Positions 7,100 through 58,875 of a stretch of DNA of 64,000 nucleotides are shown piece after piece. The stretch spans positions 186,001 through 250,000 of the forward strand of contig QPGO01000102.1 of the NCBI GenBank assembly GCA_008632985.1, given 5' to 3'. Position numbers and translations under genes: made by a program. Every line of letters begins with the position of its first letter. Position 1 is the first letter of the stretch. Source of the stretch: Psammoneis japonica (taxonomy: Eukaryota). The notes beneath the pieces were generated by a model that saw nothing but the letters and a program-made list of their open reading frames with translations, did no database searches and was not told the DNA's origin.

Positions 7100-9750
7100 T
7101 GCAGGGCAGGGTTCAGGTTGAAGAACATTCTGAATGGCAGGAACAGAGTCTGAAGGGTGAGAAACTGTGGAAAAGAGAACCAAAAGTCATGTGATTGAAA
7201 CACTCCCAGGCTGCTGGCAGTGGGCAGCCATGCACCACCAAGGGGCATGCAACCTTTGTGTTCCAGCAGTTTCAAAATGGCAGTGTGGCGGGTGTTCGCT
7301 GGACTCCCTCCAACTTCCCGCCACAGTGCTGCCTCAAGGAAAGCAAAAAAATGGGCACCAACAGCACACCAAAGAACTGAGATCCAGCGGCAATTTCATG
7401 CTCAAAAAGAGCTGTGTGTCTCATGATGCTTCACTTCAGGATCACTCTGCAACAGCGGCTCTCTGCCATTGCACCCTGGTTGACAAGCTGCTGCAATTGT
7501 TCAATCAGAGGTGGCCCACATTGCAGAAAGAAACTTTGAAGCACATGCCATTGCATGCTCCACTGTGGCGCAGTGTGGTCTGTTTCAGCGCTCTTCACCA
7601 GCAGCTCCTGAGAGAGTTGAATGAGAGCTTGGAGCTTTTCTCTGGCTCATTGCCTCCTTGTGGCCCATCGGCACTTGCGCAACAGACTGTTTGCTGAAGG
7701 CATGTTCCTTTTTGTCCCCCTGCTCTGAGATTTGCATGTTTGTGCTCATGCAGCAGCTCAGGAAGAAAACGCCCACTTGCACCCCCCCCCAAAGCTCAGA
7801 GGATGTTTCAGCCCCAGCAATTGTTCACTCCAAGTGGTCACAATCATCACATGTCTTCTTGGACCACCACAGCAGCAGCTCTGCTGGACTTTGCTTGACC
7901 TGCCCAGCCAGCCTGGACACCTCTGTGCTCAGGAGAGAGAGGAGCTTTTTTGAAACACACTGTTGTGTGCTTGATGATCGTGACACCACAGTCTGTTGTG
8001 GTTTTTCATCAACTTGCCACAAGCCAGATTTCCAGCACCCACAAAGTTGTGTAAGAGTGTGAGAAAAAAGTGTTCTCTTTGGCACATTGCTGTGTGTCCC
8101 TTGTGGCTGGACAGCAGCTTTTGCATGACACCAGCCACTTTGTTTGTCTGGCAGGCTCTTTTTGTTGTTTTAACAGGATCCCTGCTTTACAAGATCTGTT
8201 GCACAGCTGTGAGCTCACATTCATGTGAGCTGTGGGGAGGTGAGCTGGTTGGGCAGCTGCTCAATGAATTTTTTTGTCCATTGAACATGACCTTGTGAGA
8301 CAAAATGGCAGCTTGTGCAGAGTTAGAGCCTGCAGCACACTTTCCATTGTGTTTGGGTTTTGAGACAAGTTTGTCATCTCACAGCAAAAAGCTGTGCACA
8401 ATGCTCAAATGTTGGTTTTGCATTTGCAAATGAAGTCACATGAGGTTTTCATTGAAAAGCAGCAGTCTTGAGGCAGAGATGGCAAAGCTGCTGACACAGA
8501 AAATGGCGCTTGTTTTTGCCTGTTGTTTTGGGCCTGGCAGCAGGGGCTCCATTTTTGGGTTTTTTGCTGGAGTCTGGCTTCAATGCAAGAGAGGCACACA
8601 TTCCCAGTTGCCAAGCCCCCCTGCTTCTCTGTCTGTGGAGCAGCACAAGTGGCCTTCTCTGTGAACTTGCAGAAATCATTCAAAAGAAGGGACAAGCCAG
8701 TGCTTGTTGTTTTCCTTTTTTTTCAAGAAATTGAGTGCAAGATTAACTGCCATCATCAAAGTCAAGGAGGATGGCACATTTGATGGCACATTTTTTGTGT
8801 CAAAAAAGTCTCTGACAACAAAACAAAGTGCCCTTCAGAAGATGCAGCACTTTTGTGGCAAAAGAGATGCTCAGACAACTGATTGAAGGGTGGGAGTTTT
8901 GGGCACTGTGGCTCAAATCCTGCACAGATTGTGGCGGGCATGCTGCCCAGATGTCGAGTGTGCTTTTTGTCAACCTGGGCAATGCCCTGCTCATCTGACC
9001 ATAACTGACCTTCTGTTTTGTGCACATTGTGAAGTTGCAGGGTCAATTTGCAGCATCAGAATCTCTTGTTGGTGGAGAACAGCACACTCAGAACAATGAA
9101 ACAAATCTTTTGGTCCAAATGCATTTTGCCTTCACTCCTTGCACCCAGTTTCTGCTTTGCAGCACCTCTGGAGGCTGCCAAGGTTCACATCAATTTTGCT
9201 GAAAAGAGAAAACAAGCAAAGAGTTCAAAAAGTTGGGGCTGTTGTGGAATGACTCCAAGAGAGTTGTCCAAAAATCTCTTTTGTTTTGATGCAGAGCTTG
9301 CAAACTTTTGACCCACAAATTGTGTGTAAACACCTTGCTTTGGTGCAAGACACCTGCTCTGATTGGCAAGCATGGTGCAGGTGTGGCTGGCATGCCATGA
9401 CGTTGCTCCCGAAATCGTTCACTTGCTCAGGAAAGAGGCTGTCCATGCAGGTGTTGCGGGTCTGTGCGCTGAAATGCTGGAGCAGCTCGGCTCATGTTCC
9501 GCGGACAGACTCAAGCAGATGAAGCTCTACAAGATCTATCCGCAAAACCGAGAACTTGAAGCTAAGACCGATACGCTTTTTGGTGCGAAGACTGGTTTCC
9601 TCAAGAACCTTGTCATCAACCGATGCACCAAGGCAGATGCCATGTTCCAGATTGAGTGGAGGGCAGTGATGGGATTTGGGCTTTGGCAACAGTTTGGGAA
9701 GACGAATTTTATTTTCTTGCTGTGAGAATGCTGGCATGCACTTTTCAGGA
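7100..9750. mobile_element. Degenerate repeat/TE relic, TpA- and CpG-depleted
   Basis: Almost no TA and few CG, with strong TG/CA excess and many overlapping Tyr-free ORFs. The right edge (~9480-9750) is less altered and still reads like coding sequence. Family not identifiable. Confidence 0.55.
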
Positions 9751-12538: not shown

Positions 12539-13413
12539 ATGACGGAGAAAGCGGCGGAGAACTAGTCGATACGGGGCTGTTGTTGCAGGAGAGCTACTAT
12601 CACATACTTCAAGGCGGTAACAATGGTGAGAGAGTCCCTTGTGAAACGAATATGAATTTTGATCGTACGCAATTTCGTATCTCACCGACGCACTCATTCC
12701 ATCTTATCTCAGGCACCACGCAAGTCTTCGGGTGGAGGGAAGAAACGGAAACGTGTGAAATCTGCACAGAGCCCCGCGTCGCCAGCAGAGCAGGAGATTT
12801 CCTTACAAGACCAAGAACGAATCCGACAGGCTTTTGATGAGTTCGATGGAAATGACGACGGTGAGTCGTCGGTATTCGAGTTGCTGTTGGACTGCTGGAG
12901 GCCTTCTGACAGAGTCTCCTCACATATCAGAGTGGAGAGACTCTAGAAGATCGGGTGGAGTATTATATTGGCCTCCTTCTGGACGCTGTATGCTTATGAT
13001 TGCACCTCTCATGAATTTTTTTTTTTTCAGGTATCATCAACGGGAGACAAGCTAGAAATGCAATCAGGAACATGGTGGGTTTCGATATTGACAAGCACGA
13101 GATTCGACAGTGGTTCGTAAAGAATGACAAGAATGACCAGTCTTTGAAGCAGATTCAAGTAGATCTGGATGCCTTTGTTGAGTGTGCAAGTCACTACTGG
13201 ATTCAGCAACTTTCCGTCAAGCAAGCTTTCGCTTTGTTTGACGAAGAAAAGAAGGGATTTATCTCGATTCAAGACTTGAGGCGCGTAGCTCATGAACTCG
13301 ATCACGAGGATATTGCAGACGAGGAGCTTCAGGAGATGCTTGAAATCGGGGAAGATGGCATTATCAACCAACAAGACTTTTATCAAATTATGAAGAAGAT
13401 AAAACTGGTTTGA
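12539..13413 (+). CDS. Centrin/calmodulin-like EF-hand protein (2 introns)
   Basis: IRQAFDEFDGNDD|GII and QAFALFDEEKKGFISIQDLRRVAHEL..DEELQEML are centrin-like EF hands. GTGAG donors lie at ~12625 and ~12861. The start is uncertain because of an apparent 1-nt loss after the ATG. Confidence 0.75.
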
Positions 13414-15259
13414 TTTCATGTGTTCGTGCCGCAGCACGCATCCGAGCGAGATAGACATGTACGTAGACTTGTAGTTCTTCTTGCTTCTTAGGCACTCCAC
13501 TTACTAGATCCATCTGTCTTCATTGCAAACTGAATGAAACTAGGCAGCTCCTGAAACTGGTTCACTGCTCCTTGAGATTTAGGAATTCATCGCTCACAGC
13601 GCGGCATGACTCCCACGTACCGTACTGCATTGTCGGGTTTCCTGCGTTTGAATGTGGGCAACACTCCACCTCGTCGTACTGCACTGATCTGCAGGTCGAT
13701 CAACCTATAATCGGAGGGACAAGTCATTCTGCAGGAAGTACATGTACTTGTAAGATCAAGAGAGGGGAAACCACTTAGATAGAACTTGTTTCGAAAATGA
13801 TGCTAATTCGTCCGAACTGGTCTGGAATTACCGGTGTGTAACATCTAGACAAAAAAATCTGATCAGTGATCAACTGAAAAGAGCACCCCCTGAATGGTAC
13901 ACAGCTTTGCTTTGTTTTGGGTACACAAGCTCCCCGCATTCGTAATGCACATTTTTGACGACGTCACTGAAGGCCGTCCTTACATCGCGATGCCTGCGGA
14001 CGACAAGGACGTGTCCACAAATGTCCCTCCCTAGAAGCCATCGCAACAATTCAATTTTCGTGTCGCGAGGAAGCTTTTGAGATTTCTTTTTATATCTGCA
14101 ACATCCTCTTGGTTCTCTGCCGTAAAGTTGGCCATGTCTGGACATTCGCGACTAAACGGAACTTTCGTGTCGATATCTCATCTCCTAATTTCATAGTTCT
14201 TGTATTTGTCAAGGTCCGCCTGGGGCAGGATTTGGCGCCGCCCGCGTCGTGAGCGAGCATTTTTATCAATGTCCGGCTAAATGCCTTCATTCCAATATAA
14301 AGAGAATCCCTGTCTTTGCAAATCCTGGCAATCGCCTTTATCTCCTCGTCAGATGTAGCCAATCAAGTGGAGGGCGCGGCAAATCTCCATCGTTTTGCAG
14401 AGTAACGCACGAAGTCGAGCTGATCCGCAAATCCTGCACAACGTTTCGTTGAGAGCAACGAGGAAAGTAGCCCTGTCCAGTGTGTCTTCATCCAGTGTTT
14501 CCATTGTGGTGCTGCGACAGCAGAGCTGGGTCTTGCCTTGCCGAGGATGCTTCAAGCATGTTCCGAAAGTGCCGGTTGCGTAACAAGCATTGATACGAGT
14601 AAATCATTCGCCGAACCACCACCCAAAGCAAATGACTCGCAATGTTTCGTTATGTGATACTTCTCGCTTCTCGGTACTCGTGGCGTTCCGCCATTTCACG
14701 CCGAAAGGGAAACCCACCATGGTTTTGATTGTGACAGATTCATGATGGAAAAGTAGAGGAGAGGGAGAAGTGTCTCATGCCTTCTTCTATTATATTTTCC
14801 AGGAAGAGGAATATCCAAAAGGGGTCTACTGTACGTTGTCGAACGAACGCTACTGGATACCATATGAAATTGAAAATTTCAAATTCGATTTCTATCTCTT
14901 CAACCGAACTCCAATCCCGTTGGACCACCACATTTCCTTAAATGACTTAAGGAAGACAATTGCCCCTATAAGTCATTCTGCTCCCTAAACACGATTGGGC
15001 GGGCCGCGATTCGCGACTGGAACGCACGAGAAAGAACGAGGGTGTCAGGCGCTTATGCTGCTGTCACTCACAAACCACCTGTCAACGCGAACAATCCATT
15101 TCGAAGAACACTCTCGAAGCAAATACCATCTCAGGCTTCCTTCTTTGAGACCTGTGTCGCCCTTTAGAAAACAAGGAAAGAAGAAAAACTGCTGAGAGGA
15201 AAGCTTATACCGCTACGAACACCGATTGTGCCGATCGTAGACCACAGAATACAGAATTC

Positions 15260-16588
15260 ATGCCGAAGCTATCTCGATTTCACCTACTGTTTGTCATACC
15301 CTCCTTACTAGGAGGCTTATTCGCCGATGCTTGCAAGTGCAAACCACCTGATCTCCCAACAAAGTATAACGATGATTCGGTCTCCGATGTCATGCGCGTG
15401 AAAATCCTTTCTGGTTCCATAGCCAAAGATCTCAATGGCTTCGGGGACATGAGAGTTTATGCCGCACTCGTAACCCAACCTTACAAAGGAACCACAAAAA
15501 GAGGTGACTTTGTTATTCTAAAAACACGAACACAATCAGCGTCTTGCGGGACAAAACTATTGTTGAAGCAGCAGATGCTTGTGACGGCTTCGTCAGAAGG
15601 CGAAAGCCCGGGGAATTTCATGGTCAATTCGTGTGGCTACAACAAAAAGTGGAAACGCGTCAAAGGCAATCGCAGGGACAGAGAATTCCTCAGTACGCTC
15701 CCTGGTTGTTGTGAGGATCGTGAAGGAAATCCTGTGTGTGACCAGTCAGTGTGTGGTTGCAGAGACGGAGTCGAGGAAGTCAGATGCTTTGCGAACCCGT
15801 GTGATGTAGCAGAGTGTGACGAAGGCATGTGTACTGCTAACTATTGCGGCGGCTGCAACGATATTTGGACTACAGATTCTGGCTCGACTGTGTGTACCAG
15901 CTGTCGCAAAGACAGCGACTGCAACCAAGACATTCAGAAATGCGTTGACAAGCAGTGCCGGACATTGTGCTTCAATAACGAAACCTGCTCGGATGGCCAC
16001 TATTGTGACGCAGAACAGAGTATTTGTGAACGCGGGGATGAGGAGAAGGAGGAGGAGTCTACGTTCATGTACTACAAGACTTGTGGACTTCCAGTTTGTC
16101 GATATCCTCCACCTGACTTGGGGCTTCCCAAGTGCACGGTGAAGGAGGGATCAAGCTGCAGTGCAAAAGACGAGGGAAACCAGTGTGATCCCGGGATTGG
16201 TTGCGGCGTAAGTTTGAAGTGCACCGATTCGGATCCCACACTTGGGGGTAGAGGGTGTCCTAAATCTCGTCGCGCAACAAAACGAGACATCAACTACCTC
16301 AACGAGAATTCTAGAGAAGAGGTCGCGAACGACTTGATGAACATTCGCCTGGCAGAGTGGAACTACAAACAAGATCCTGACGAAACGGCTCCTCGCCTGG
16401 GCTTTATCATTGAAGATATTGAACCAAGCCCTGCTGTTGATTCAAAGCGAGATATGGTTGATCTATATGGCTACTTGTCAATGGCTGTTGCGGCTATCCA
16501 GACGCAGCAGGAGAAGATCAATCGTCTTGAGAAAGCCGTGAATGACCTGCAAACGCAAGACGAGCATGACAGCACAGCCCAATTTTAA
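15260..16588 (+). CDS. Secreted protein: TIMP/NTR-like domain + Cys-rich repeats + C-terminal peptidase S74 (intramolecular chaperone, phage tail-fibre type) domain
   Basis: Signal peptide ends ADA|CKC, followed by the TIMP-like YKG...T..SASCG...V.SC...W pattern. C-terminus has SRRATKRDI..L...WNYK..RLGFIIED..VDLYGYLSMAVAAIQ and a coiled coil. Single exon. Confidence 0.75.
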   Translation: MPKLSRFHLLFVIPSLLGGLFADACKCKPPDLPTKYNDDSVSDVMRVKILSGSIAKDLNGFGDMRVYAALVTQPYKGTTKRGDFVILKTRTQSASCGTKLLLKQQMLVTASSEGESPGNFMVNSCGYNKKWKRVKGNRRDREFLSTLPGCCEDREGNPVCDQSVCGCRDGVEEVRCFANPCDVAECDEGMCTANYCGGCNDIWTTDSGSTVCTSCRKDSDCNQDIQKCVDKQCRTLCFNNETCSDGHYCDAEQSICERGDEEKEEESTFMYYKTCGLPVCRYPPPDLGLPKCTVKEGSSCSAKDEGNQCDPGIGCGVSLKCTDSDPTLGGRGCPKSRRATKRDINYLNENSREEVANDLMNIRLAEWNYKQDPDETAPRLGFIIEDIEPSPAVDSKRDMVDLYGYLSMAVAAIQTQQEKINRLEKAVNDLQTQDEHDSTAQF

Positions 16589-16899
16589 GGGTGTTGTTTT
16601 TCATTACGTGCATATGTCAAGGGAAGCAGCAGCACTGGTAGCACCCTCCAGTAGCTACTGTGTAGAAATGGGATTTCCCTGACAAACTCCGAATTAGCAT
16701 ACATTATCTCGATTGTTTGTAGACGAATAAGCGAAGTACCTGTATGCAGTCTTTAGAATAACGCCACACTTTGCGACATGATAAGAAACTGTCTCTCGCT
16801 CTGTACTTTTGTCCTCTTTACAACGACACTCACTCATCCTCAGTCTCGTTAACGAGATCTATGCTGGTTTCACCAATGCATCCCTCCCCCTCAGGACCC

Positions 16900-19800
16900 A
16901 CCGTCGAATTTGTTTCTTTTCGTCTTCGAGGTTTGCAGCGTGGACACTGTCGATGTAAAACTCAATGGTCTCGTTTTGATCATCTCAGTTCCCTCAGTTG
17001 GATTGCCCAACACATGCTTGATGGTGCATTCACATGCAAAGTTCTCACAGAGGGCGCTGTCAGCTTGAAAGTCACTTGCTGCTTGCACATTGATGAAGCA
17101 TGACGCATCTGGCTCAGTCAAGGAGTCTTTCTGCATTGGCAAAATTAGAAAGCATGGCTGGCAGTGCTCAATCCCCACAGTTGCACTTTGAGGTTTAAAT
17201 CCAAAACCCACTTCAGGCTTCCACCAATGGCAAATGCATTCTCCTTCATTTTCCAAGGCACATTTCCACAAAGCTGTGCTCTTGGTGCAGGACCTGTTTC
17301 TTTGATCCATCCACAGTTTGTGCCCCCATCATGTGCTTGGTTTCTAGAATCCTTGTGTCTTTGACGGGGTTGCATTTCAGTGCTTGCAGTGCTTTTTCAG
17401 CAACATCCTGTGCCACCCATCTCACTTCTTTGCCATGTCCAGGTGTGACGGTGGTGCAAGAACAACTGCCACTTTCAATTGCTGAGCAGAAAGAACAGAC
17501 AGCAAACACAACATCAAACTGTGCCATTGCTGCTTTGCACAACTGTCTGAGTGGCCCCATGTTGTCATTCTTCACAAATCAAACAAACAGTGGTTTTCAG
17601 TCTCAGCAGCAGATTTTTTAAAAACAAGTGAGCATCAAAGGTGACTTGCTTGGATTGCTTGGACAAGTGAGGAGAATGATGCACAATCTGGGTTTGTCAG
17701 CCATGCATTTGCCAATGTGCACAGCCCTCAATTGATGAAACACCAAGCTCCAATGCCAGATGTTTCAAACAATCTGCACGCATCAAAAGGCCTCTCCTGG
17801 CAGCAGTGTGAGCAAGCCTGCTCCTGTTTCATTTTCAAAAAATGATTTTTGCCAAAAATCAACACGTGCAACAACTGGTGCCACTGCTTCTCCAAATGCA
17901 GCATGCTGCAGCACTTTTGCATCAGCACACCAAACCACATCACACCATGGGGGTGCTGATTGCTGATGAGCTGCTTGACTGCAGACACTCACTGAACATC
18001 TCAGCTGCATGAGTGACTTTCATGCCACCAGCCCACAATGCAACGGTGCTTGTTGCAAACAAAAAATTGATCAGCAAGGTGCTGTTGTGCCAATGTGTCA
18101 GTGTCTTGCAGTCATTCTACACCCAGGCTGCCAAACAGGTTAATTTGTGCACAGCAGCAGCACTGACAGAGTGAACAAAAAACTTGCCAAGACAACTGAG
18201 AAAATGGACAAGAAGACAGATTGCAGCAGGGCAACAAACAGGCTCTGCAGTGTGAAAGCACTGCTCCAGTTTGCCCTGTCAGTTGTTGGCAATCTTGCCC
18301 CATCCAAGTGCAGTTGGCAAGCAAACACTGGTGTTGTGTTGTTGACCCGCCCCTCTGTCTGACCACATGGTCGCACAATTTTTTTTGTGGAAGGTGGAAA
18401 AAGGGGTTTTTCCAGATGACACACACCATGGCAATCAAGCTGCACCAGCAGGCCAATGCAGTCTCTTGACAAATGAACATCATCACAGAGCACATCACAA
18501 GAGTGGATCAGCATGTGGGATTGTCACAAAGATGGATGTCTCTGCAGCCACTTTGTTGACTCAAAAAGCCAAGCATTGGCATGGAAACTTTTTGCAAAAC
18601 AGATCAAAGTCTCCCTCAGCAGATTTGCAAAGAAGGTGACTGACAGAATGGAATGTGGGGCATTGACAGATCCCTCATCTGAAAAAAGGTGGTCTGGCAG
18701 CATTGGATCTTGTCACTTTGCAGAGACAGATGAGCACACATTGTTGAAACGGCATTGCAAGCAAGAACCAACTTGCAGCCTTGGAAGCCATCAATGGCAG
18801 CAGCTTTTGTGACACACAGACACAGTGGCATCTGAAACAATGGTCTGTGTCAATGGCTTCTGGGCTGACTCAAAATCACAGGCAGGGTGTGCAGGAGCCA
18901 ACACCTTTGTTTCTTTTGGCAAACTCACTCTCTAGAGAGCCTGGTTTAGATGGAGAGATGCAAGATCATTGTCCATGATGTGGATCTTCAGCAGATCAAA
19001 TTTGGCAAGAATGAGAAACACTGATGAAGAGCCAATCTTGACTGCAATGTGTGCTGTTGTCCAGCTGACAGCATGTTGTCAGGGAGGTTCTTCTTGACCC
19101 AGAGTTTTGGGTGTGCACACACCACTTTTGATGTTGAAATCATGTGTGAAGCTCACATGAAGGTGCTTGCACTTGATTGTCACCTGGAACACAGAAATGT
19201 GCCAGTGCTGGTCACTGGAATCTCTTGATGACTGGCCTTTACAAATTTGGAATCTTGCTTCTTTTCTGCCAGCTGGCTTTCCCCAATTTAGCCACAGCCA
19301 CACAGAAGATGTGGCATGCACTGGCGAGGCAACCCACAAGCTAGAATCTTCAAGGTTCTTGTCCAGCACACCTGCTGCAGCTGCACCAGCTCATCAACAG
19401 CAGCATCACATCTGCACCATCCCACACATGACAAGTTGGTGCTCACAACCAATGGCAGCAAACCCTTTTTGGCTGCTTCAGCTGTCAATGGCACAGTCAA
19501 CAGCAGCGCCATTTGTTTGTGCCATCTTGTGAGAAGGTGTTTGTCTCTGCACATCATCCAGTCTGTTGCTCTGCACCCCACTCCCCACCGTCATTGTGAA
19601 GCACACATGATGACATTTGGGAGATCAGGTCAAAAGCCAGCTGCATTGTCTTGTTTCTTGTTGACTGTGTCACGCCACTCTTCTCCAGCTCATGGCTTCA
19701 TTCATTGCTGTTGTGCAATGATGAATCCCGCAAGCCTCTTTCAAGGCTTCACCATGCTTGCTTCTTGGATCTGCAGCCCCTTTTTGGAAAGAGGAGGAGG

Positions 19801-22390
19801 CCAGCTTGAGGGAGAAGATGATGATGTTGTTGACAAAGACAACAAAGACAAAGAAGATGAGTGGTGACTGTGCCTCTTCTTGTGACCATGGACGTGCTTC
19901 CTGAAGAGTGTTTCTTGCACACTTCTTGGAGCCAAGAAACAAGGCAGCAGCTCAGCGGGCCAAATCTGGAACCACATGTGTGCCAGATGCCAGCCTCCAA
20001 AAGTGCTGGTCTGTTCCTGTTGCTTGGCATTTTTCTTCTTCATCTTGCCCTCCTTGAGCTGTTGCTTCTGAGCAACAGCCTCCTTGGCTTTTTCTAACCA
20101 AGCATGCTGAGCGCTGACTTTTGCTTGGCTGTTGCTGAGTTGGTTCCCCTCTTGCTGTTCTTGTTTCTTGTGTGTGCCTGCACTCAAGATGTGTTGTTTT
20201 CATGGTGCTGAGAGTGTCTTTTATTTCATGCAGCTTCAATCAAAAGGTGCTGGTGCCTTGCCTCAGCCTCTGGGCTTGCACAGTGCTGCCAGACAACTTG
20301 TTTTCTTTCCCATTGCTGCTCTGTGCTGAAAGCAGAGCACTGCTGGCTCTTAGAAAGCTCCCGCCAGAGGTCCTCTTGTGTGGAAGAAAAGGGGGAAACA
20401 AAAACACAACCAGCAGCATGATGCAGGTGGGGAGGGCAGCTGTTGCCAATGCTCTGACAGCCACTTGCACCTCTCAACATCTCCAACTTTCCTGGGCACC
20501 AGCCAGCAGCACCCACAACATGTGGGCTGTGTGGTGCCCTGTTGCATTTTTTCTTTCAGAACAGTGGCACACCATTTTCACAAAAAACACTGTGCAAATC
20601 TCTTCAAATTCACTCAACCATGTGCCACCCACCACCCACGCCTTGATGCTCTTGCAAAATGCTGCTCTGTCAGCTCTGATCTGCCTTTTGCTGTAACATC
20701 CATTGCCCATTGCTGCTGCCATGTTGATCTGCAACACACCACATGTTGCACTGGCATGCCGGCAGCACTGTTGAACACTGAAGAAGCGAGCAAGTCACGT
20801 TTTGCACTGTTGTTTCACTCTGTCTTTTGTGACTCCATTTGTGCTTGCAGATGAATCAGCAGAGCAACCAATCTGCTGCTCCCCATCTGTCTTGCAAGCT
20901 AGATTGATTTTGGTGGTGCACACAGCAGCGGCAGCTCTGATGGAGTGCTGAGAGCAAACATGATGAAGATGGCCAATGAACAGCCAAAGAGACAGACTGC
21001 AGCATGACAACAAACAAGCTCTGACGTGCAATTGTGACAATTGCAGTTTGCCCAACTGCTGGCACAACAAAAGTGCCAAAGCAGTGAGTGCACACTTTCA
21101 GCCAGAAATCAGGGGAGTTGAGCATTGAGAGAGTCAGGTGGAACAGAAGTGGACAGTGGTGCACAGGTGAAAAGGTGAGAAAAAAGGGCAGGCTGGCAAC
21201 CTTGCCAGAACCGAAAAAGTTCACAAGGCAGTTGTCAAGGCAAAGGAAAAATTTTCAAAGGAAAGAAGGGGGGTGCATGAACTTGAAAGACAAAAGGGAG
21301 CAGAGGTTTGCCGCCAGCCATCATCACAGAGAGAGGAGCTGGCAAACAAGGAGGTGGGCAAGCTCTCTCTGTGGTGTGTGGCGGAGCATGAATTTGGGGG
21401 TCTGCGGTGCAAGCAAGGGCCAGGAAAGGAAAGAATGATGAGTTGCAAGTGCCAAGTTGGTGCAAAAAGTGGTGGACTTGAGGAGGGAAGTGAAAGGGTG
21501 GGAGCCTGGGGAGCAAGAACAGGGGAAGGATCAAAATGAGAAGAAAGAGGGCCAAAAATGGGGCGGGTGGTGGTGGAAGGATTGCAAATGGAGGAAGATG
21601 GGAAACAGGCAGAAAACTCATGCAGAAGGAAATTGGAGAAAGAACAGTGTCACACCAAGTGAGGTCTGGCAAGTCCGCACTGGAGTTGGGCTGTCAGTGC
21701 ACAGCAGAGGAAGAGGGGTGAGGCTGGTGCGGGAGAGAGTCTTGGCGACGCCAAGTTTGGGAATGCCACCAAATGTTGTGCTGGCATCACAACATGTGGT
21801 TGTTTCACCAGTGGTGGTGCAAACTGAAGAGAGAGAAGGAAGGGGGCAATTGGGATGGCAGAGAGGCTTGGAGGGGGGCTCAAGGGTGCAGCCACATTTG
21901 TCAGGGGGCAGGACAAAGAAAAAGCACAAAGGTCGTCAGAAGGATCATCAAACAATGGGTCCAGATCATCAAGGAAAAACTCATCCACGCCAAAGGAACA
22001 ATCAGCAAAGAGAACTGGCAGGTGAATGGTCAAAGATTGTGCTGAAGGAAAACTGTTGGCTTTCAATCCAGCACTGAACACAGTCTGGAGTCTGTGACCA
22101 GTGCAATGCCGGTAACTCGCAAACAACAATCGCAACGCATGATACGAACGAAGGGCAGGTCGTTTGGTGCGGTCGCAAGTAAAGTGAGACAGCGGCAAAA
22201 TAGAGAACGATGAACGATGTATTTACAGCACGATGATCTTTCGTCGTGACGCCGGCAACTTGCTGAAGCATATTTACAAGACGCGTTGCACTGTCTGTTG
22301 CTCTCTATCTTTGTGACTCTGTTTGTGTTTGCAGAATAAATCAGCAGAGCAACCTCTCCGCCGCCGCCATATTGCAAGCTACTAGAGCAA
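16900..22390. mobile_element. Degenerate repeat/TE relic, extreme TpA depletion
   Basis: About 16 TA dinucleotides counted by eye in 16981-22080. Contains an internal diverged direct repeat (~20760-20905 vs ~22250-22385). Confidence 0.6.
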
Positions 22391-22564
22391 CCTCATTCAC
22401 ATTATACCTTGTAGGTGTGGTGTGTTTATCGGTTCGTCATCCCGGGTTCACCACATCAGCACTGCTGTGATGTTAGAATTGGAAACAATTCACCAAGCCA
22501 TGAATACTAACAAAAGTCAGATTGACTCCTGTTTTGGGAGTCGCCATGCCGTCAGACGGTCGTC

Positions 22565-23350
22565 TTGCCCGGAGAGGAATTGTTATCAAAGTCAAAACGA
22601 GCACAACATAAGCGGATACAAGCTCCACCTCCTCCGCAATGCCCTCCACCAATCCCATCGAAAATGGTTCGATTGGTGGTTCTGGGCGATGCTCAGTCCG
22701 GCAAAACATCCTTGATACAGCAATTTCTGTTTCGTTTCCAAGTCGGACAAACAAATAATGGGGATCGAACCACCGCGTCCACACGAAAGAAAAAGTCTTG
22801 GTCCGTGGACTATTACAAAAAGGACATTTCGTACCGGCTCAACAATAATGAGTTTGCATGTACGCGTTTACAGCTATGGGATATTTCTGGATTAGACAGC
22901 TCTTTTATTGGAAGCGACACAAAGGACGACGAATTGAATCAGCTCCTTCAGAAAGCATCTGGCATAGTCTTGGTACTCTCGTGCGAACTCGGGTTTCAGG
23001 CGTTGATGGAAAGCATAAGCACATGGATAACGCGGCTGAAGAGGAATAGTTCAAAAGAGCAGCTTCCAAGAGTTGCACTGTTTGTGAATAAGCAAGATCT
23101 GTTGGACAAGATAAAAGAGAAACCTTCCACATGGATACGAATTGGTTCAGTCTTGTCAGAAGCATGCCAAAGACTGGGGATTCAAGAATGGTGTCTCTCC
23201 TCCTGCCATGGCAATACCCCAAATGACAGTGCGTTAATTGAAAGTGCCATGATGGGCTTTCTGAAGGGTTGTGTCAACGATGATTCTCATGGGAATACTC
23301 AAGAAGGGCGTTCACAAAGAATGGGGCCCCAATACCAACACCAACAGTAG
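22565..23350 (+). CDS. Rab-like small GTPase (divergent)
   Basis: G1 GDAQSGKTS, G3 LQLWDISG and G4 NKQD. Start uncertain (ATG 22499 with a frameshift, or ATG 22664). Confidence 0.8.
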   Translation: MPGEELLSKSKRAQHKRIQAPPPPQCPPPIPSKMVRLVVLGDAQSGKTSLIQQFLFRFQVGQTNNGDRTTASTRKKKSWSVDYYKKDISYRLNNNEFACTRLQLWDISGLDSSFIGSDTKDDELNQLLQKASGIVLVLSCELGFQALMESISTWITRLKRNSSKEQLPRVALFVNKQDLLDKIKEKPSTWIRIGSVLSEACQRLGIQEWCLSSCHGNTPNDSALIESAMMGFLKGCVNDDSHGNTQEGRSQRMGPQYQHQQ

Positions 23351-23824
23351 TATATTGAAGATGACCTCCGGCTTTGAGTCTGACCTTGGCTCTAGAGAGG
23401 AACTAGCAGAGAGTCGTCGTACAGGACTAGTCATGGATTGGTCAAGCTCGCAAGTTGGTATTTGCCTTTTGCTATCGTACTAGAGGCCTAGTAAATAGAG
23501 ACTAGCAAAATAGTGGTAGCAATTTCGTGTTGATGCATTGCTCGGGAATTTCCGTTTGACTTCTGGTAAGGTTATCCTTTTGCTGGAGGGGCTTTGGAGA
23601 AGACTGGAAGGAAAAACTCGCGTTGGAACCTGCCCATTACCTGTTGCACCGCACGTGATCTTGGATCTTGCTTTTGGTGATCTTTTCGTCTTCGTCATTC
23701 TCCAGTCGTGCCAAATTATTCCCAGAAATAAGCCAAAGCAGCAGCGCTCTATCATACCAGTACACTCTCTCTTAGAGCGGCAAAGAAAAGCAGCCACTGA
23801 TAACACATTAGGGGCTCTAGAGTC

Positions 23825-24847
23825 ATGGAAGGGACAGCCACTGTTAAGATGCTCACGTTAAAAGCCTCTCTGTTGTTGCTGATGGTTTGCCGCATGGACG
23901 CTTTCGTCGTTACACCTTCCCGTACTTTGCACTCCACGACAAGCAACAAGCCGTTATCGCAACTTTCTTTTTCGTTTACGAGTCACATGATGGAGACAAT
24001 TCCTGCTTCTGTGCTTGTTGGCGATGCCTCGATAGAGTCTACTGTTGCTGCGTTTGATCCTGTCATGCTTCTGGGAGGATTGACGGCCGTCTTTGTCGTG
24101 ATGGCACCGCTGCTTCTGGCTGCTACAGAAGTTTATAATGACGAAGATATCGTCAAAGGAGATGCAGAAGAAGCAGAACCTCCCAGGAGACTCACTTCAA
24201 AGAGTAGCAGGAAACGAGGAGAAATTATTGGAGGAGCTGTAGGGCGCCGGGGCACGCTCATGACTCTGCTGGGTGGTGCTGTAAGTCTTGCGGCTAGCGA
24301 TGTTCTGCTGGGAGCGGTCACCTCTAGTGTCTTTGGTGGCAGCGTTTTAGGCGGAAACGCTGCAATTTCTTCGTCCGTATACGGTGCTGAATGGAGTGCT
24401 CTGTATCAACGTATTGCAACCTTGGGTGCCAAGCATGAAGCTGCCGCAGCCGTTTCGCCAGAGCTGGTCTCATGGATTGCTCGATCACCCGCATTCTTTG
24501 CAAATCCTGAACTACGAGCATGGGTGGCTGCTCAACGGGCATTTCACAAAAGCAGACAAATACTGGGTGCTGCCGTGACTCTAGAAGAGGGCCTTGCAAC
24601 TGCTGGTGCAGTTGCTGCAGCGGCTGCTGCAACGAAGAGCGAGTCTACTGCGAAAGATAAGGTTGCCGAAGCTGACGTATCTGACGTTGTCGTTTCAGGT
24701 GGTGCTGTCCAGCCAGCTGAGAATTACGAATTGACTGATGTAGTCAACAACATGAAGACCGAGACAAATTCAACAACCTCCACAATAGTGAGTGACAAAC
24801 CGCTTGAAGAGAAGAGGCACAGACAGAATAACGCTGGCTACGACTAG
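23825..24847 (+). CDS. Hypothetical membrane protein with putative bipartite plastid presequence
   Basis: 340-aa ORF with normal composition, signal peptide ending MDA|FVV and hydrophobic segments. Confidence 0.6.
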   Translation: MEGTATVKMLTLKASLLLLMVCRMDAFVVTPSRTLHSTTSNKPLSQLSFSFTSHMMETIPASVLVGDASIESTVAAFDPVMLLGGLTAVFVVMAPLLLAATEVYNDEDIVKGDAEEAEPPRRLTSKSSRKRGEIIGGAVGRRGTLMTLLGGAVSLAASDVLLGAVTSSVFGGSVLGGNAAISSSVYGAEWSALYQRIATLGAKHEAAAAVSPELVSWIARSPAFFANPELRAWVAAQRAFHKSRQILGAAVTLEEGLATAGAVAAAAAATKSESTAKDKVAEADVSDVVVSGGAVQPAENYELTDVVNNMKTETNSTTSTIVSDKPLEEKRHRQNNAGYD

Positions 24848-25149
24848 AGGCGCTCAACCTTGGCGATTTCAGGTTGAAGAGTACAGTAGAGGAAGAGTCA
24901 AAGATGGAGGACTTGTCTGTGAAGGAATTGGAGCTCCAGGTGGTCTAGTTGGTGGGCCGGAGCTTTCGTGGGTGATACAATGCTTCTCGCTAGAGGGAGA
25001 CGCATGGATGGACTGTCGGTCTGTGTTGCAGTGAGCGAAAGTGGTATGGTAGAACGGTGTATTATTTAAACTTGTGGTAGATTCAGTCAACAAAGGTGTC
25101 GTAGACATCGTAGGCGGTAAACACCGTTACTAGGCTTGGGGACAACAAA

Positions 25150-27810
25150 ATAAAAGTGCACACGCGAGTGAGCACAGTGCCCTACACACAAGCACCCCAA
25201 TCACATTTTATGTCATTCAAGGAAATCCCCGTAGAAGCAGTTTTAAGCTTTGAAGGTAACTGGCCACAATCAATCAAAGATGAGGCATGTACAAGAAGCA
25301 ACAAAGAATCAAGCAGACAACCCAAGGCTGTCACCCTTGCAGTCTCTCATCTCACAGCATGTGGGTGGAACCCTCCTCTCTTTTTGGCTCGAATCTGATC
25401 TGGTGGCCAGCTCATGATTTTCAGCCAAAAATTTGTTTCCACACACTTGTGCAGCATGACAACCATGGCCAGTTTAGACAATCTAGGTGAACACAATGAA
25501 GATGGGGCTTCCATGTGCTTTCTTTACAGTGTGTTGTTTCTGATTTTTTTTGAGAACAAACTCAACATGGGGAAGCACGTTCACAGCTGTTTTGTTCACT
25601 CCCACCCCACATTTCATTCTTTGTTTCTGCCACACTTGTTCAGCAAAAATGCATCAAAATGCAAAAAGAAAAAGACACAACAAGATGAAAAGAAAAAGAG
25701 AAGTCATGACAAAACCAAAAACAAAAAGTGGGCTGCATTCTCATCCAAGATGCCAAGATTGATGCACAACATTTTTGCCATGTGCATGCCAAGGCTGACA
25801 GCAACAAGAATCCATGAAAATGGACAATCAAAAGAAATGAAGTCACTTTCACTGTTGGTTTGTGGATGATCTTTGCTTTGCAAAGGGTGCTGCCAGCAGC
25901 CAAGAAGAGCCACACAAGAAGAGCTCATTGGCTTCTTGCATCATTTCTGCTTCGTGGCCCAATGTGCACCTGAGAAGCTGCACAGTGAATTCCAAGAGTT
26001 CCGCAGACACCAATGGCAGAAGCAGCAACAAGAAAAGCAACAGCCGCGTGCTTGAAATGATGCACCCCCTCATGCTGGCTTGCCAGTGTGACATCTGGAG
26101 CTTCAACCTGTCATCATCTTTGTCAAACCAGCAAAAAAGCCAGAAAACTCTGACCCACAAACTCACCAAGTTTCCACTTCCCAGGCACATTGTGCAGCTT
26201 TTTGCGGCATCATGGCCCTGTTGTTGGCAGGTTTCATGTCGCAGTTGCACTGGCTTGTCACCGATGGTGAGGAACAGTGCATTGTGGGCATGAGCAACCT
26301 TTTCAGATGGAGGAAGGTGTTTTGCTGTTGATGCTGGCATTTTTCTTGTTGTTGCCCTTTTTTTCATTTGCCCGTGGAGCTGCTTTGTTTCTTTGTGTGC
26401 CCCTCCTCCAATGATGCCCACACTTTCTTTGCACACTGCTGCAGCTGCTGCTCAGCTGTCTGCAGTGCACATGCAACAAGAGGCTTGCACACAGGAGGTG
26501 TCATCATGGCAGCAGCTGGAGCTTCTCTTGCACTGCTGCATTGAGGAACCACAATTTGTGGGAGACAGCAGTGGTGTGACATGGTGTGTTTTGGATTTGG
26601 ACTTTGCCGTTTGCAGTGTCTCATGAAAATTGTTTTTGCTCATGGTGTTTTGGTGCATTTTTTTTCTTTCTCTGTCTCCTTCAGATTGCCCAACAGGGCT
26701 GGCCTCTCTTGTCACACAAGAACACTCAGCCTTGTGGACTTGACACCATTTGCAAATGAAGCAGTGCATTTTTTGATGATGCAGTGGTGTGTTTTTTGCA
26801 ACATGTCATCAGCACTGCAAGGCATTGCATGGACAACACTTTTTTGCTTTGTGGCATTGAATCAGACAAACACACCAAATTTGGTGCAGACAAAACAGCA
26901 ACCCTGTGCCCTGTGCTTGGCTTTGAGAGCACGCAACAACCGAGAAGCCCAGGAGGCACAAGTGCAGAAGGTCTGACACTGCAAAACAAAACAACAACAG
27001 CACTGGCATTGTGCAAGCATTATGGCCTTTTTGCTGCTTTCCAAGACAAGCTTGTGTTGCTCTTGTTTGAGCTTTGTGTCAATGTCTGTTGCCGTCACCT
27101 CATGTTCTTCAAGCTGCAGCGCTGCTCCTTTGTCTTGATGCTGTGCCATGCAGTCAACTCAAGATTTCCACACAGGTTGACTGGCCAGCTTGTCTCTAGC
27201 ACACAGATTGCATGCACAAAAAGCTGGAAGCTGGAGCTCTATTTTAACATGAACCAGCTCTCCGCGCAACACCACCCAAGAAAGAACAACACAGCCATTT
27301 GTCAAAAACAGCTGGGCTCAACAGAAGAAACACAGAAAAGCAGCTCAAAGTCACAGCTGAAGCAGCCTCATGCAGTTTCCCATTGTTTTTTGTTGTGAAA
27401 AATTGCTTGTTGAAAACTTTTCTTTTGTTGCTCATGCACTCAAAGCAGCCGGCCAAGAGCGCAGTTTTTGGCCGAATCTCTTCTCTCTCAGCAAAATGAC
27501 TGGATGATCTGAAGAAAGAGAAAAGCAGGGGGAAACTCCCAAGAAAGATTTGCTCCCAAAAAAGGTTTGGTGATGGAAGAAGGATTGACACAACACCTCA
27601 CCCCAGCATGGCGTGCACAACTCTCGTGTCTGTGTGGAGCAAGGCAGGGCACATCTCTGTTCTTCGGCCCTGCTGCCTCGAGAGGAAGAAGCCTCCTGGA
27701 GTGTACAGAGATGAGCATGACAGGGACAGGTCTTGATGTTGCTGAGGCACACTCACAACTGCCAACTGGAAATGACACAAAACATTGTTCTGCCATTGAC
27801 CAAAAAGCAG
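25150..27810. mobile_element. Degenerate repeat/TE relic, TpA- and CpG-depleted
   Basis: Same compositional signature, with a graded left edge at 25150-25300. Confidence 0.55.
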
Positions 27811-28543
27811 TGTAAAAGAAAACTGGAGTGCCATGCTAGAGCTCGAGAGTCCACACGAGCGAGGCATCATTCTGAATGAAGAACTATAACGCAGGCCGAC
27901 AGAGCTCGAAAAAAAATGATAACCGTGACGTTGGCTTCGTCCGACGTCTGTCACATTCAAATTTACTATCGAAAAATAAGTTTAGTATCCGGCAACACAC
28001 TCGCATTTCGAGCGTCACACCAGCTGTTTGACACCATTCTTCTCTGAGGGCAATACCACACGAAAAACAGAAATTATGCTGAAAAACGCACTTGTGTTCA
28101 ACGGGATCGACGTTAGGGCAATAGCATTTTTAGATTTTCTTTTAAGTAAATCACTTCGTGACGTAATGATGACTTAATAATAGCCCTTTATGCGTCAGAA
28201 TGTTACTCGCCGAACAGTTCTACTCCATATCTTTATTGTCAAACGTCATTTCTTCCTTTCATTTTGTTAACTAAATTATTCGACGGTTTTGAAAGAGATT
28301 TAACACCAAGTGAAGAACGTCGATTCTGATTGGCTGAGAGCTCTTACCCAGAAACGCCTCAGAAACGAAATGACGCTCACGCTTCCTGCAGCGTGTCACC
28401 CATCAAATCACGAACACAACATCCAAACTTCGTGCTGATCAACGAACACAATCACAAATAATCGCCATCAGCATCAACGCAATGCTCAAAGATCAATAAG
28501 AACAAGACCCACCCCCGACACCCTTTTACTCTCACTTTCTTTA

Positions 28544-36785: not shown

Positions 36786-37149
36786 AATCGCCTGCTTGGA
36801 TGGTACATTGATAAAGACATGTAGTTCGTTTGCGATGCTCTGGCAGTAAGAGAGAGAACGCTCGTCACCACCGTCTTTTCACCATGGTTCTTGCTTTTTC
36901 TCGTCGCTTGTGCCGCCGCGGAAGAATCGGATGCTCAAAAGCAGGACAAGTTTCACGTGAATTTCTACGGAACTTCAGCTATGACTCTTGCGCCGCTGTT
37001 TCCCCGCCAATTTCGAATTGCCCAATCTGCAGATCATTTTGGATTTTCATGTCACCACCGCCACTTACTCGCATCATCTGTCGCACCGCAAGCCGTTCAG
37101 CAATGCTGTAAGAGGACGGGACTTGCCATTGCTTCACCCCGCTCCCCGG

Positions 37150-40100: not shown

Positions 40101-40800
40101 ACAGGGTGTTGCTGTGTGGGAGTGCACAAAATTCTCCAAGTGAACAAGGCGAACTCAATGGCTCTGCAAGACCAGTGAAAAGAGAACAAAGCAACATGAT
40201 GAGTGCTCAAAGAGCACATTTTTGGAGCAAAGCTCTGCGTGGAACTCCAAGGGTCAAAAGCCAGAGCCAGAGTTGAGGCCAACACAAACACCAAACAAGT
40301 TGGCAGGGGGGAGGGGGGTGTTGAATGTGCGGAACATTGTTGCTGTTGCGGCGCGCGCATCAAATTTGTCTCAAGTTCATTTCCTGTTGGCCATTGGAAG
40401 GAACAAGATTGGACAGTGGGGGCAAGAGCCAAAACTGTCCCCCCCGAGCAAAAAACCCTGCAAAACAAAACAGAGGCAGCGCAGGCAACAAAACAAGTGT
40501 TCATCCATTTTCAGCGCACAAGTCTCTCAGATCACAACCACCTCAGGTGAGGTGTCTTTTGTCAGCAGCAAGCAGCAACACCCAGATTTTGGTTGGGTTG
40601 GCAGGGGTGCGAGAGAAGAGACAAGTTGTCCTGGCAGCTTGGGTGGAGTCATGGACCACACTGGCCCATCATCCTTGTTGCTGTGGTTCAGCCAAGCGCA
40701 ACCCCAAGGTGGAAAAATGTGCTGCCTGGATCTCGGATTGTGGTGTTCATGTTGAGAGGACATTGGCAGGTCTGTTTGATCGCAGATTTGTGTTTTTGCA
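37150..40800. mobile_element. Degenerate repeat/TE relic, TpA-depleted, with a CpG-retaining island at ~38920-39400
   Basis: Compositional signature and Tyr-free remnant ORFs. Confidence 0.55.
39064..39189. repeat. 17-bp perfect inverted repeat, 92-bp spacer
   Basis: TCAAATGCCACTTGTCG (39064-39080) / CGACAAGTGGCATTTGA (39173-39189). Confidence 0.85.
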
Positions 40801-40813
40801 CAATTTACAGACT

Positions 40814-40932: not shown

Positions 40933-40967
40933 ACCTCATGTAATAAAAATCCTGCCGGTCTACTAAT

Positions 40968-41040
40968 TCCGGTATGATGTAGGTGGTTAGCATACTTGCC
41001 TTTCACGCAGGATACCAGGGTTCGAGTCCCTGTACCGGAA
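40968..41040 (+). tRNA. tRNA-Glu(TTC)
   Basis: Acceptor stem TCCGGTA/TACCGGA, anticodon arm CTTGC-CTTTCAC-GCAGG, T arm CAGGG-TTCGAGT-CCCTG. 73 nt. Confidence 0.93.
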
Positions 41041-48900: not shown

Positions 48901-49580
48901 GACCGGCATGCATCACAAATGAAACACTCAAAAAATGGCATGGCAGCAACACTGCAAATCTTTCCATGTGTCGTGGGCATCTCATGCTGTTTGCTTTGTT
49001 TGCATTTTGCACACATGCTGTTGCTTGCGTGCTGGTGTGCTTTGAGACGTGCTGCTTGCTTTGATTGACACATCATTGCTCTTCTTTGAATGTGGTGAGC
49101 ATGCAACATGTGATGAATCACAAGGATGACAAACAAATTTGTGCATCTGGCCAGCACTCTTTCTTCTCTTTTTTGCAGACAATCAACGATTCTGGTCCAA
49201 GTCTGTCCTCCAAGAATGCCACTCTGACTGAAGTGCTGTGTGTGTTGATGGTGGTCCAAGTCTGTCCTCCAACATCAGAGTGCACGAAATGTTAAAAATG
49301 TGCAGATTTGCGTGATGACAATTTGTTTAAATGTTGCAAAATGTTGTTGTCGTGTGATGACAGGCCAACCTCTGGTTGCAAGTTTGGCACACCAACATTG
49401 CAACAACTTGTTGAGAATTGTGCACGCTGTTTTTCACTGCACCCACATCGCCATTTCTGCCTCCACCTTGTTGCCATGTGCCAATGCGTGATTGCATTGC
49501 CACACAAACCTTGGTTTGTCAATTTTTGCAAACATCATTTTAAACAAGAAAAACATTTCATCGGCCAAGTCAATTCCTTG

Positions 49581-51600: not shown

Positions 51601-51614
51601 CGCGTGTCAATCTG

Positions 51615-58337: not shown

Positions 58338-58875
58338 GTGTGACTTCTTTGATTGGAGCAAAAGTTGCCGTGCTGGGAAAGAAGCCCCATTTGGTTGTTG
58401 AGCTTGTGTTTGGTTGATCCTCGTGAATGCGAAAAAGGTGCTGCAGCACATTGGGGTGTTGCAGACTCTGCTGTGGAGAAGTGGACCACACTGCAGACAT
58501 TTGATTGATCATCATAAATGCAAAAACACTTTCAGGCGGATGTGCTTTTGCCAAATGGGAGGCATTGTTAGCACAGAGACACGTTCTTGTTTCTTGGTTG
58601 CCATTTTCCATGTTTGAGGCATTTTTTGTCGCGCGCATTTATCGCGCATCATTTCGCTCTATCGTGTGTCGGCGTCGGTGCCTTTTTTTTACGCGTGCGT
58701 GGTCCGGGGTGGCGGAAGGATGCACAAAACAGAAAACCAAGGGACGCACCCCTGTGGCAGGGGAGCTGTGTGTGTGTGCGTGGTTGTGCGCGCACGGCTT
58801 CGCCGTGCGTTGAGTTTTAATGTCAACATCCACACGAATGTGCACATTCCACAAGCAAAAATTCCCATTCCACAG

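Follow-up and report, generated by a model that had tools for sequence, protein, structure and literature searches.

Near-saturating loss of TpA in discrete, CpG-poor blocks of a diatom genome points to targeted A:T-to-G:C hypermutation

We analysed a 64,000-nucleotide stretch of the genome of the diatom Psammoneis japonica (assembly GCA_008632985.1, contig QPGO01000102.1, positions 186,001 to 250,000 of the forward strand; hereafter the window, whose own numbering is used throughout), in which the dinucleotide TpA is almost absent from a block at 16862-22107 and from four further blocks. This pattern is probably the product of a hypermutation at the level of DNA that is targeted to blocks, converts TpA by A:T-to-G:C transition nearly to saturation, proceeds fastest where TA is followed by a pyrimidine and operates in DNA that is also losing CpG. 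In the proposed mechanism, the TA step would be converted on one or the other strand, giving TG or CA, with neighbouring steps being independent of each other. An adenine with a 3′ C or T would be attacked more readily, and YTAR steps (Y, pyrimidine; R, purine) would be left over. The same blocks would lose CpG to TG and CA, the usual footprint of cytosine methylation, and the hypermutation would be aimed at silenced, methylated DNA between expressed genes, degrading what is encoded there.

A reading made from the sequence alone had counted by hand about 16 TA steps between 16981 and 22080 (5100 bp, 48.7% G+C), where a few hundred were to be expected. The recount yielded exactly 16 against 335.5 expected from base composition; with the normal domains of the window as reference for TA density, the expectation is about 203 (Poisson P = 4e-65). 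The survivors lie in the contexts TTAG and CTAG (four each), TTAA (three) and CTAA, CTAC, TTAC, TTAT and GTAA (one each). YTAR accounts for 12 of the 16 (binomial p = 1.8e-7 versus 15.5% in normal domains), and a pyrimidine precedes TA in 15 of them (p = 1e-4 versus 46.6%), which reproduces the earlier context list together with both of its tallies. Runs of A had been described as untouched, and the observed-to-expected ratio (O/E) of AA is indeed 1.22, AA and TT both being slightly high. CpG is nearly gone as well (36 CG against 301 expected), TG and CA stand at 1.8 times, GC at 1.33 times and AT at 0.74 times the expected frequency. The loss of CpG, the excess of TG and CA and the four further blocks had been missed by the sequence-only reading.

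Segmentation of the window, using 1-kb bins and a two-state hidden Markov model (HMM) on the property "T followed by A", resolved five TpA-erased blocks with sharp edges, which comprise 29,388 of the 64,000 bp and contain 108 TA steps against about 1913 expected (O/E 0.04-0.08 in each block). The relative dinucleotide abundance (rho) in the blocks is 0.06 for TA, 1.67 for TG, 1.74 for CA and 0.44 for CG, as compared with 0.57 for TA and 0.96 for CG in normal domains; TpA is thus about 10-fold lower in the blocks, with CpA and TpG in excess. The block at 16862-22107 shows observed versus expected counts of 17/345 for TA, 43/310 for CG, 578/326 for TG and 608/329 for CA. The other blocks are located at 7100-9526 (TA 7/161, CG 22/142), at 25309-27811 (TA 8/178, CG 24/136), which includes a TA-free run of 1496 bp at 25525-27021, at 36862-40805 (TA 19/255, CG 104/238), which ends about 160 bp short of a tRNA gene, and at 45711-60978 (TA 57/974, CG 571/928). 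The last is the largest, shows the weakest CpG decay and contains two copies of a tandem repeat. The CpG O/E is 0.14-0.18 in the first three blocks and 0.44 and 0.62 in the last two. As TpA is saturated in all five blocks and CpG is not, TpA loss is faster than CpG decay; the latter, which varies 4-fold, accompanies the loss of TpA and cannot cause it. As a specificity control, the same HMM was applied to 40 environmental diatom loci (313,109 bp; TA O/E 0.52-1.13) fetched around a COG5 gene, and it returned no block of at least 500 bp. Therefore, the block pattern is not ordinary diatom composition, while these contigs, being short and genic, say little about the repeats of other diatoms.

The direction of the change can be followed in the tandem family of units of about 6-7 kb, in which self-BLAST located four copies, all on the forward strand, c1 and c4 in normal DNA and c2 and c3 within the largest block. 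Copy c1 (41606-46092) is TA-normal up to about 45.7 kb and served as proxy for the ancestral state. Copies c2 (47938-49272, partial) and c3 (53904-58524, 88% identical to c1) are hypermutated, and c4 (61015-64000) is TA-normal by the HMM and partly converted relative to c1. Alignment sites with less than 60% local identity were dropped, and homologous sites of c2 and c3 were counted separately. The normal copies offered 181 TA sites, whose counterparts in the hypermutated copies are TG in 83 cases, CA in 66, CG in 3, still TA in 12 and another dinucleotide in 17; hence, 169 sites were lost, 149 of them through one transition, 3 through transitions at both bases and 17 in another way. In c3, the TA sites of c1 read CA 22, TG 21, TA 5 and other 4 times. 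Between 45.7 and 46.09 kb, c1 is nearly identical to c3 and both are TA-free. The paralogs differ by indels and other substitutions as well.

Per strand, A changed to G from the normal to the hypermutated copies at a rate of 0.436 in TA, 0.078 in AA, 0.109 in CA and 0.043 in GA, with a baseline between the normal copies of 0.213, 0.047, 0.078 and 0.031, respectively. Comparable rates of AA-to-AG and TA-to-TG change would have spoken against a TpA-specific process, a comparison that the sequence-only reading had itself proposed; they were not found. The high baseline at TA indicates that the normal copies have likewise lost some TA relative to each other. Between c1 at 41606-45702 and c4 at 61015-64000, the differences fall mainly at TA, with 0.21 per strand versus 0.03-0.08 at other A. 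The conversion process thus seems graded, not all-or-none. In the hypermutated copies CG changed to TG at a rate of 0.21 (83/395) versus 0.05-0.06 (18-41 of 342-673) for C-to-T changes in other contexts. Taken together, the alignments support the loss of TA by A:T-to-G:C transition at TpA.

The base that follows the TA step affects its fate. Among the survivors of all five blocks YTAR makes up 56 of 108, compared with 212 of 1372 TA steps in normal domains (odds ratio 5.9, Fisher's exact test p = 9e-17), so that the enrichment over the genic background proposed earlier as a check is present, and RTAY makes up 2 of 108 versus 406 of 1372. The YTAR enrichment and the order of survival are found both when the three blocks poorest in CpG are taken alone and when the remaining two are. 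Relative survival is 0.41 for CTAA/TTAG, 0.35 for TTAA, 0.14 for CTAG, 0.135 for GTAA/TTAC, 0.02 for GTAC and 0 for both ATAC/GTAT and ATAT. A hazard model that treats both strands and assigns a single parameter to each 3′ base fits well, with values of 0.36 for A, 0.78 for G, 1.86 for C and 2.53 for T (likelihood-ratio test, LRT, chi2(3) = 116.6). The repeat alignments yielded per-strand conversion frequencies of.60 for TAC (61/101),.48 for TAT (51/106),.32 for TAG (18/57) and.24 for TAA (17/70), corresponding to an odds ratio of 3.1 for TAY over TAR (p = 2.8e-6). The choice of strand follows the same preference: YTAY steps became TG 46 and CA 18 times, RTAR steps 12 and 17 times (Fisher p = 0.006), and the extremes are TTAC (TG 10, CA 0) and GTAA (CA 10, TG 2). 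Correspondingly, the model for the +1 base fitted to the survivors predicts strand choice with an area under the curve (AUC) of 0.64 (p = 0.0015, n = 149). These results support a preference, not a rule, for conversion of A with a 3′ pyrimidine, and survivors are therefore mostly YTAR, in which the A has a 3′ purine on both strands. The TAY preference suspected from the sequence alone is hence borne out by survivors, per-strand rates and strand choice, and so is its qualification as a preference, as TAA and TAG do undergo conversion, at per-strand rates of 0.24-0.32.

The +2 base has a strong effect among the survivors, where A is protective, TAAA and TAGA survive best and TACT worst (LRT p = 3.5e-11). 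This effect was not seen in strand choice, for which the rates by +2 base are.41 for A,.50 for C,.52 for G and.39 for T. Adding the +2 base worsens the prediction of strand choice, and a +2 effect was therefore dropped as a property of the process. The word TACG, with a relative survival of 0.056 versus 0.005 for TACT, is not the most depleted one.

The order of the two outcomes along the DNA indicates that neighbouring sites are converted on one or the other strand independently of each other. The number of runs of TG and CA matched that of shuffled series in all six alignments (P(sim<=obs) 0.38-0.83), from which it follows that either strand is converted site by site. Of 25 sites converted in both c2 and c3, the two copies agree on TG or CA at 20 (p = 0.004 versus 0.5) and differ at 5, and c3 retains TA at 3 sites that are converted in c2. 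Accordingly, most conversion in c2 and c3 is older than their duplication or was homogenised, and some is later; the five discordant outcomes and the three sites still reading TA in c3 show that the process continued after the duplication.

Two sets of read contigs from the same sample, X1 and X2, whose library type is not on record, were compared with the window; a third set, X3, placed no contig on it. X1 record 4, a separately built contig of 11,244 nt with a k-mer depth of about 60, covers 12562-23789 with 27 differing letters and 18 gaps. Of the 59 differences between X1 and the window, the 40 listed for comparison comprise 28 in blocks and 12 in normal DNA. Among the 28 in blocks, the window reads TG or CA where X1 reads CG in seven cases and CG where X1 reads TG in two; at 19427, in the context ATAT, it reads CA where X1 reads TA. 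The 5.2 kb of the block at 16862-22107 account for 17 of the listed letter differences, one of which restores TA. Adjacent double differences of CA versus TG among those listed occur at 18113/4 and 25911/2; such a double marks one ancestral TA that was converted on opposite strands in two haplotypes. A CA/TG double and the CA/TA difference thus lie within the block at 16862-22107 itself. In normal DNA, 3 of the 12 listed differences are TA versus TG. Of 17 X1 contigs, 10 overlap the window in part only, which hints at dispersed repeats.

The consequences for coding sequence are apparent in two open reading frames (ORFs). The first, at 43290-45092 (+) in c1, is tandemly repeated, with paralogs at 55486-57288 and 62687-64000 revealed by self-comparison. 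In the hypermutated paralog at 55486-57288 (+) in c3, Cys and His each stand at 7 of the 16 positions that are tyrosine in the c1 ORF, Arg at 1 and Tyr at 1, so that 1 of 16 is kept; in c4, 12 such positions comprise 5 His, 3 Cys and 4 Tyr. Synonymous and nonsynonymous changes number 73:81 between c1 and c3 and 54:53 between c1 and c4, counts from which selection on the copies can be neither deduced nor dismissed. Among proteins of 330-1052 amino acids in a search of 5.8 billion proteins, the c1 ORF found no homologue at E <= 0.001, and it has no usable Atlas match; it starts with QKTIGSFF, which we take to resemble a PCNA-interacting (PIP-box) motif. The second, a hypermutated ORF of 392 amino acids at 51618-52793 (-), belongs to a family that has 52 homologues (best, 53% identity, E = 1.7e-78) and a predicted class I methyltransferase-like fold. 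It contains no tyrosine: the family motif LDYYWMPxGxW reads LDCRWMPDGEW, and the seven aligned tyrosines of the closest homologue are replaced by Cys (3), His, Arg, Phe and Val (1 each). The tyrosines lost here and at 15 of 16 positions in c3 were therefore not shielded by selection. Likewise, as TAA and TAG stops and tyrosine codons are erased, the blocks present long, stop-poor ORFs that match nothing.

The family of the 392-residue ORF yielded no Pfam match at E <= 1 for eight members, no PDB sequence match at E <= 1 and no relative in viral contigs, and a metagenome scan based on a closer alignment found no relative. The model of an intact member (predicted local distance difference test 72, core >90) aligned with class I S-adenosylmethionine-dependent methyltransferases at VIA-align Z scores of 8-9.5, which are middling and would indicate the fold, not the function; Foldseek returned no match for the model at E <= 0.001. 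An Atlas lead to a BMT5-like methyltransferase reached a score of only 0.75.

The closest precedent is found in the chlorarachniophyte Bigelowiella natans, for which the main text of a preprint (Mettrop et al., bioRxiv 10.64898/2026.01.13.699255) describes two regions of integrated viral DNA with a total of 231 de novo mutations. Almost all of them are A-to-G or T-to-C, all such changes fall on TpA and give TpG or CpA, and their rate of about 6e-7 per site per generation is about 1000-fold above background (10.64898/2026.01.13.699255). The same text reports 124 clusters depleted of TpA and enriched in CpA and TpG, and its authors, who cite DNA activity of the ADAT2 of amphioxus and trypanosomes, propose an ADAT2-like deaminase as genome defence, adenine deamination being their interpretation and unproven (10.64898/2026.01.13.699255). 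The diatom blocks share with that system the almost exclusive A-to-G/T-to-C change on TpA and its confinement to discrete regions poor in TpA and rich in CpA and TpG. Unlike the rhizarian B. natans, diatoms are stramenopiles and belong to another branch of the supergroup. Moreover, the mutating regions of B. natans are still TA-rich (rho 0.45; 3.3-9.2% TpA) and recognisably derived from viruses or transposons, according to the preprint, whereas the diatom blocks are saturated (rho 0.06) and hold no recognisable target. The preference for a 3′ pyrimidine and the concomitant decay of CpG are absent from the preprint's main text, and its supplements may bear on both. Thus, the blocks carry the signature of B. 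natans in another lineage and at saturation, a signature previously reported only once, and they add to it the flank preference, the link to CpG and a block structure bounded by genes and a tRNA gene. Our literature search, which did not extend to subscription journals, revealed no earlier description of either TpA-erased blocks or TpA hypermutation for diatoms.

The repeat-induced point mutation (RIP) known from ascomycete fungi changes CpA/TpG to TpA by transition, saturates blocks, ruins coding sequence and is associated with cytosine methylation. The diatom blocks resemble its products in that transitions specific for one dinucleotide saturate discrete blocks and ruin coding sequence. The direction is nevertheless the opposite one, from TpA to CpA/TpG, and fungal RIP itself does not fit, TpA being depleted 10-fold relative to normal domains and CpA/TpG being in excess. 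RIP strikes all copies of a duplication, whereas two of the four tandem copies here escape saturation. The decay of CG to TG and CA in the same blocks, together with the allelic CG/TG and CG/CA differences, resembles the CpG decay of methylated DNA.

As to the chemistry, enzymatic deamination of adenine to hypoxanthine in DNA would be the most economical one, and we consider the case for it evenly balanced. Enzymes of the TadA family have an intrinsic preference for a 5′ U, native TadA depending on UACG and TadA-8e keeping the preference for UA (PMC12296453). The process described here shares the 5′ T (U) and has TAC as its best context, with TAT close to it. It differs in that TACG is not the rarest survivor and in that natural TadA acts on a tRNA loop, whereas here both strands of chromosomal DNA are converted site by site. 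No deaminase domain was found among the ORFs of the window scanned with Pfam. The targeting may follow methylation or heterochromatin, and the process may serve in genome defence.

Several other explanations were weighed. The strongest of them, though we consider it improbable, is a thymine-first chemistry, in which the T of TpA would be modified (to hydroxymethyl-uracil or a base-J-like derivative, by an oxygenase of the TET/JBP type) and then mispaired or misrepaired to C; restated on the T strand, the flank preference would be one for a purine 5′ of T. In dinoflagellates and kinetoplastids, the modification of T favours certain dinucleotides. Moreover, TA is palindromic, so that TA-to-CA on one strand is TA-to-TG on the other and every count fits either base. 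The balance of changes argues for adenine, as 149 single and 3 double transitions stand against 17 other changes, whereas glycosylase processing would be expected to give more transversions. The optimum of a 5′ T and a 3′ C, with TAC converted most often, resembles the native TadA substrate UACG as given in PMC12296453, and the only experimental precedent, that of B. natans, is read in its preprint as adenine deamination, if as yet unproven (10.64898/2026.01.13.699255).

An artefact of assembly or basecalling, in which modified TpA (and 5-methylcytosine at CpG) in heterochromatin would be miswritten as TG/CA by a long-read basecaller, is very improbable. Both depleted dinucleotides are plausible sites of modification, the library type is not on record, and X1, stemming from the same sample, may be the assembly's own data. 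However, the separate X1 contig reproduces the block, with TA restored by a single one of the 17 differences listed there, the outcome at each site is fixed and correlates with the flanks, and the paralogs differ in other ways too; it is because the second contig agrees and the fixed outcomes depend on the flank that we consider this explanation unlikely. The same signature was, in addition, obtained from Illumina data in B. natans, according to the preprint (10.64898/2026.01.13.699255).

Selection in place of mutation, whereby TA would be purged by a TA-targeting transposase or nuclease, or foreign DNA would have arrived TA-free, deserves very little credence. It draws on the fact that the ancestral state of the block at 16862-22107, which has no paralog in the window, is not directly visible. 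Selection against TA would accept any substitution, whereas 152 of the 169 losses are transitions and only 17 are not, and the losses destroyed conserved tyrosines; on both grounds this explanation is unlikely. Moreover, the CA/TG double and the CA/TA allelic difference lie within that very block, and all five blocks share one hierarchy of contexts.

A 5′ U is the preferred neighbour for ADAR, and WA (W, A or T) the preferred motif of Pol eta. Nevertheless, ADAR-like hyperediting of RNA whose products were reverse-transcribed and integrated, or Pol eta acting in error-prone repair, is hardly credible, since an edited cDNA would have its changes confined to one strand, whereas strand outcomes behave like shuffles in 6/6 alignments and show no coordination, since no reverse transcriptase or other Pfam domain occurs in the 141 block ORFs and the changes lie in tandem, in-place paralogs, since C or T is preferred over G on the 3′ side in contrast to ADAR, and since AA, the other WA step, is spared (AA-to-AG 0.078, close to the baseline of 0.047, versus 0.436 for TA-to-TG). 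The 5′-U preference of ADAR is noted in the B. natans preprint as well (10.64898/2026.01.13.699255). The sequence-only reading had disfavoured both ADAR and Pol eta, in agreement with these results, and its overall interpretation is partly supported; its suggestion that the enzyme is TadA-like is not among the supported parts.

Several points weigh against targeted hypermutation by adenine deamination in methylated DNA. The footprint of adenine deamination is the same as that of a T-to-C change via a modified thymine on the opposite strand, and it is from CpG decay that methylation is deduced. The block at 16862-22107 has no second copy in the window, and the direction of change assigned to it therefore derives from its identical signature and three allelic sites. 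Homology alone is no trigger, as the tandem copies c1 and c4 are spared by the HMM, though partly converted. A simple flank rule is incomplete: the survivor model with +1 and +2 bases predicts strand choice poorly (AUC 0.57, p = 0.08), and GTAC palindromes of the normal copies became GCAC in 12 of 12 cases in c2 and c3 (48403-56986), never GTGC (p = 0.0005). These sites include AGTACT in 3 of 3 cases, and some of the 12 are homologous between c2 and c3. Bulk tetramer counts of GCAC and GTGC are symmetric, with no strand asymmetry found, and the asymmetry in the alignments is not accounted for by any flank rule. As c2 and c3 share 20 of 25 outcomes, counts drawn from the two together lack full independence, and so does X1, which shares its sample with X2 and may be the data from which the window was assembled. 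None of the 141 block ORFs (stop-to-stop, at least 90 amino acids) reached a Pfam gathering score, so that foreign or repetitive targets are not demonstrable; E values of 0.0025-0.0091 below threshold in ten of them were taken as noise. The sole block family for which homologues exist has no relative in viral contigs, and its predicted fold resembles that of methyltransferases. Finally, with none of the 40 environmental diatom loci containing such blocks, generality in diatoms is not supported there.

The blocks are discrete and chromatin-sized, and they lie between genes. The ORFs of the normal domains encode eukaryotic housekeeping proteins (COG5, MCM-binding protein, MsrA-FKBP, GT61 and a Roc GTPase). 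The significant matches of the MCM-binding protein that carry a species name are all from diatoms (3/3), and so are the named relatives of the COG5 ORF, led by Cylindrotheca (51-52%) and followed by Nitzschia, Pseudo-nitzschia, Seminavis, Fistulifera, Mayamaea, Attheya and Chaetoceros; these genes assign the window to a pennate diatom, as opposed to Bigelowiella. The X2 contigs behave like transcripts, as two GT..AG intervals are skipped in them. These introns, of 87 and 170 nt (12624-12712 and 12859-13030), lie in a gene with a pyridine-nucleotide oxidoreductase domain. The block at 16862-22107 is adjoined on its left by one transcript-like contig (15130-16762, +) and on its right by another (22211-23447), which covers the Roc-GTPase gene identified with Pfam, with a gap of about 100 bp on either side; in general, block edges lie about 100-300 bp from such contigs. 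No X2 contig falls on 16806-22145 or 25350-28000, an absence that is no evidence of silence. The X2 word depth reaches about 1270 over the gene at 23784-25009 versus 10-70 for its neighbours; the 340-residue ORF at 23825-24847 has no Pfam match.

At the end of the block at 36862-40805, the gene of tRNA-Glu(TTC) is located at 40967-41041 (+; Rfam 59.8 bits, also predicted by ARAGORN). In yeasts, tRNA genes act as heterochromatin barriers, and the position of this gene beside the block end would fit chromatin-guided targeting.

Some blocks show further local features. A stretch at 21001-22000 is purine-rich on the forward strand (GC skew +0.36, AT skew +0.35), and one at 49001-51000 is pyrimidine-rich (GC skew -0.17, AT skew -0.24 to -0.29). 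At the right edge of the largest block, an inverted repeat of 126 nt (58876-59001 and 60869-60994, 1867 nt apart) is 93% identical over its arms and about 99% over the central ~105 nt; it is CpG-rich and retains two CTAA steps. It may be a conserved element spared from decay, or else mark the two termini of a small DNA transposon. Between the arms, a tandem repeat of about 181 nt occurs in about four copies with 82-95% identity (59100-59811).

If the hypermutation is real, it is not confined to one species, targeted A:T-to-G:C hypermutation of chromosomes having been described otherwise in the one chlorarachniophyte preprint. The flanking preference for TA followed by C or T is a constraint that any candidate enzyme must reproduce, and the process is tied to CpG-decaying, presumably methylated DNA whose borders are expressed genes and a tRNA gene. 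In the annotation of genomes, the blocks account for stretches of long, stop-poor ORFs without matches. Several diatoms are transformable, so that knock-outs and reporters could make the question accessible to experiment. For base editing, an adenine deaminase that naturally acts on DNA would be of interest, if real. More tentatively, diatoms and chlorarachniophytes might share an ancient, heterochromatin-guided "reverse RIP", in which a deaminase of adenine in double-stranded DNA, acting at 5′-TA-Y, would be recruited to methylated silent chromatin and erase foreign or surplus genes. If true, this would constitute a new class of eukaryotic genome defence across lineages of the stramenopiles, alveolates and rhizarians, and would provide a naturally occurring deaminase of adenine in DNA whose sequence preference is defined.

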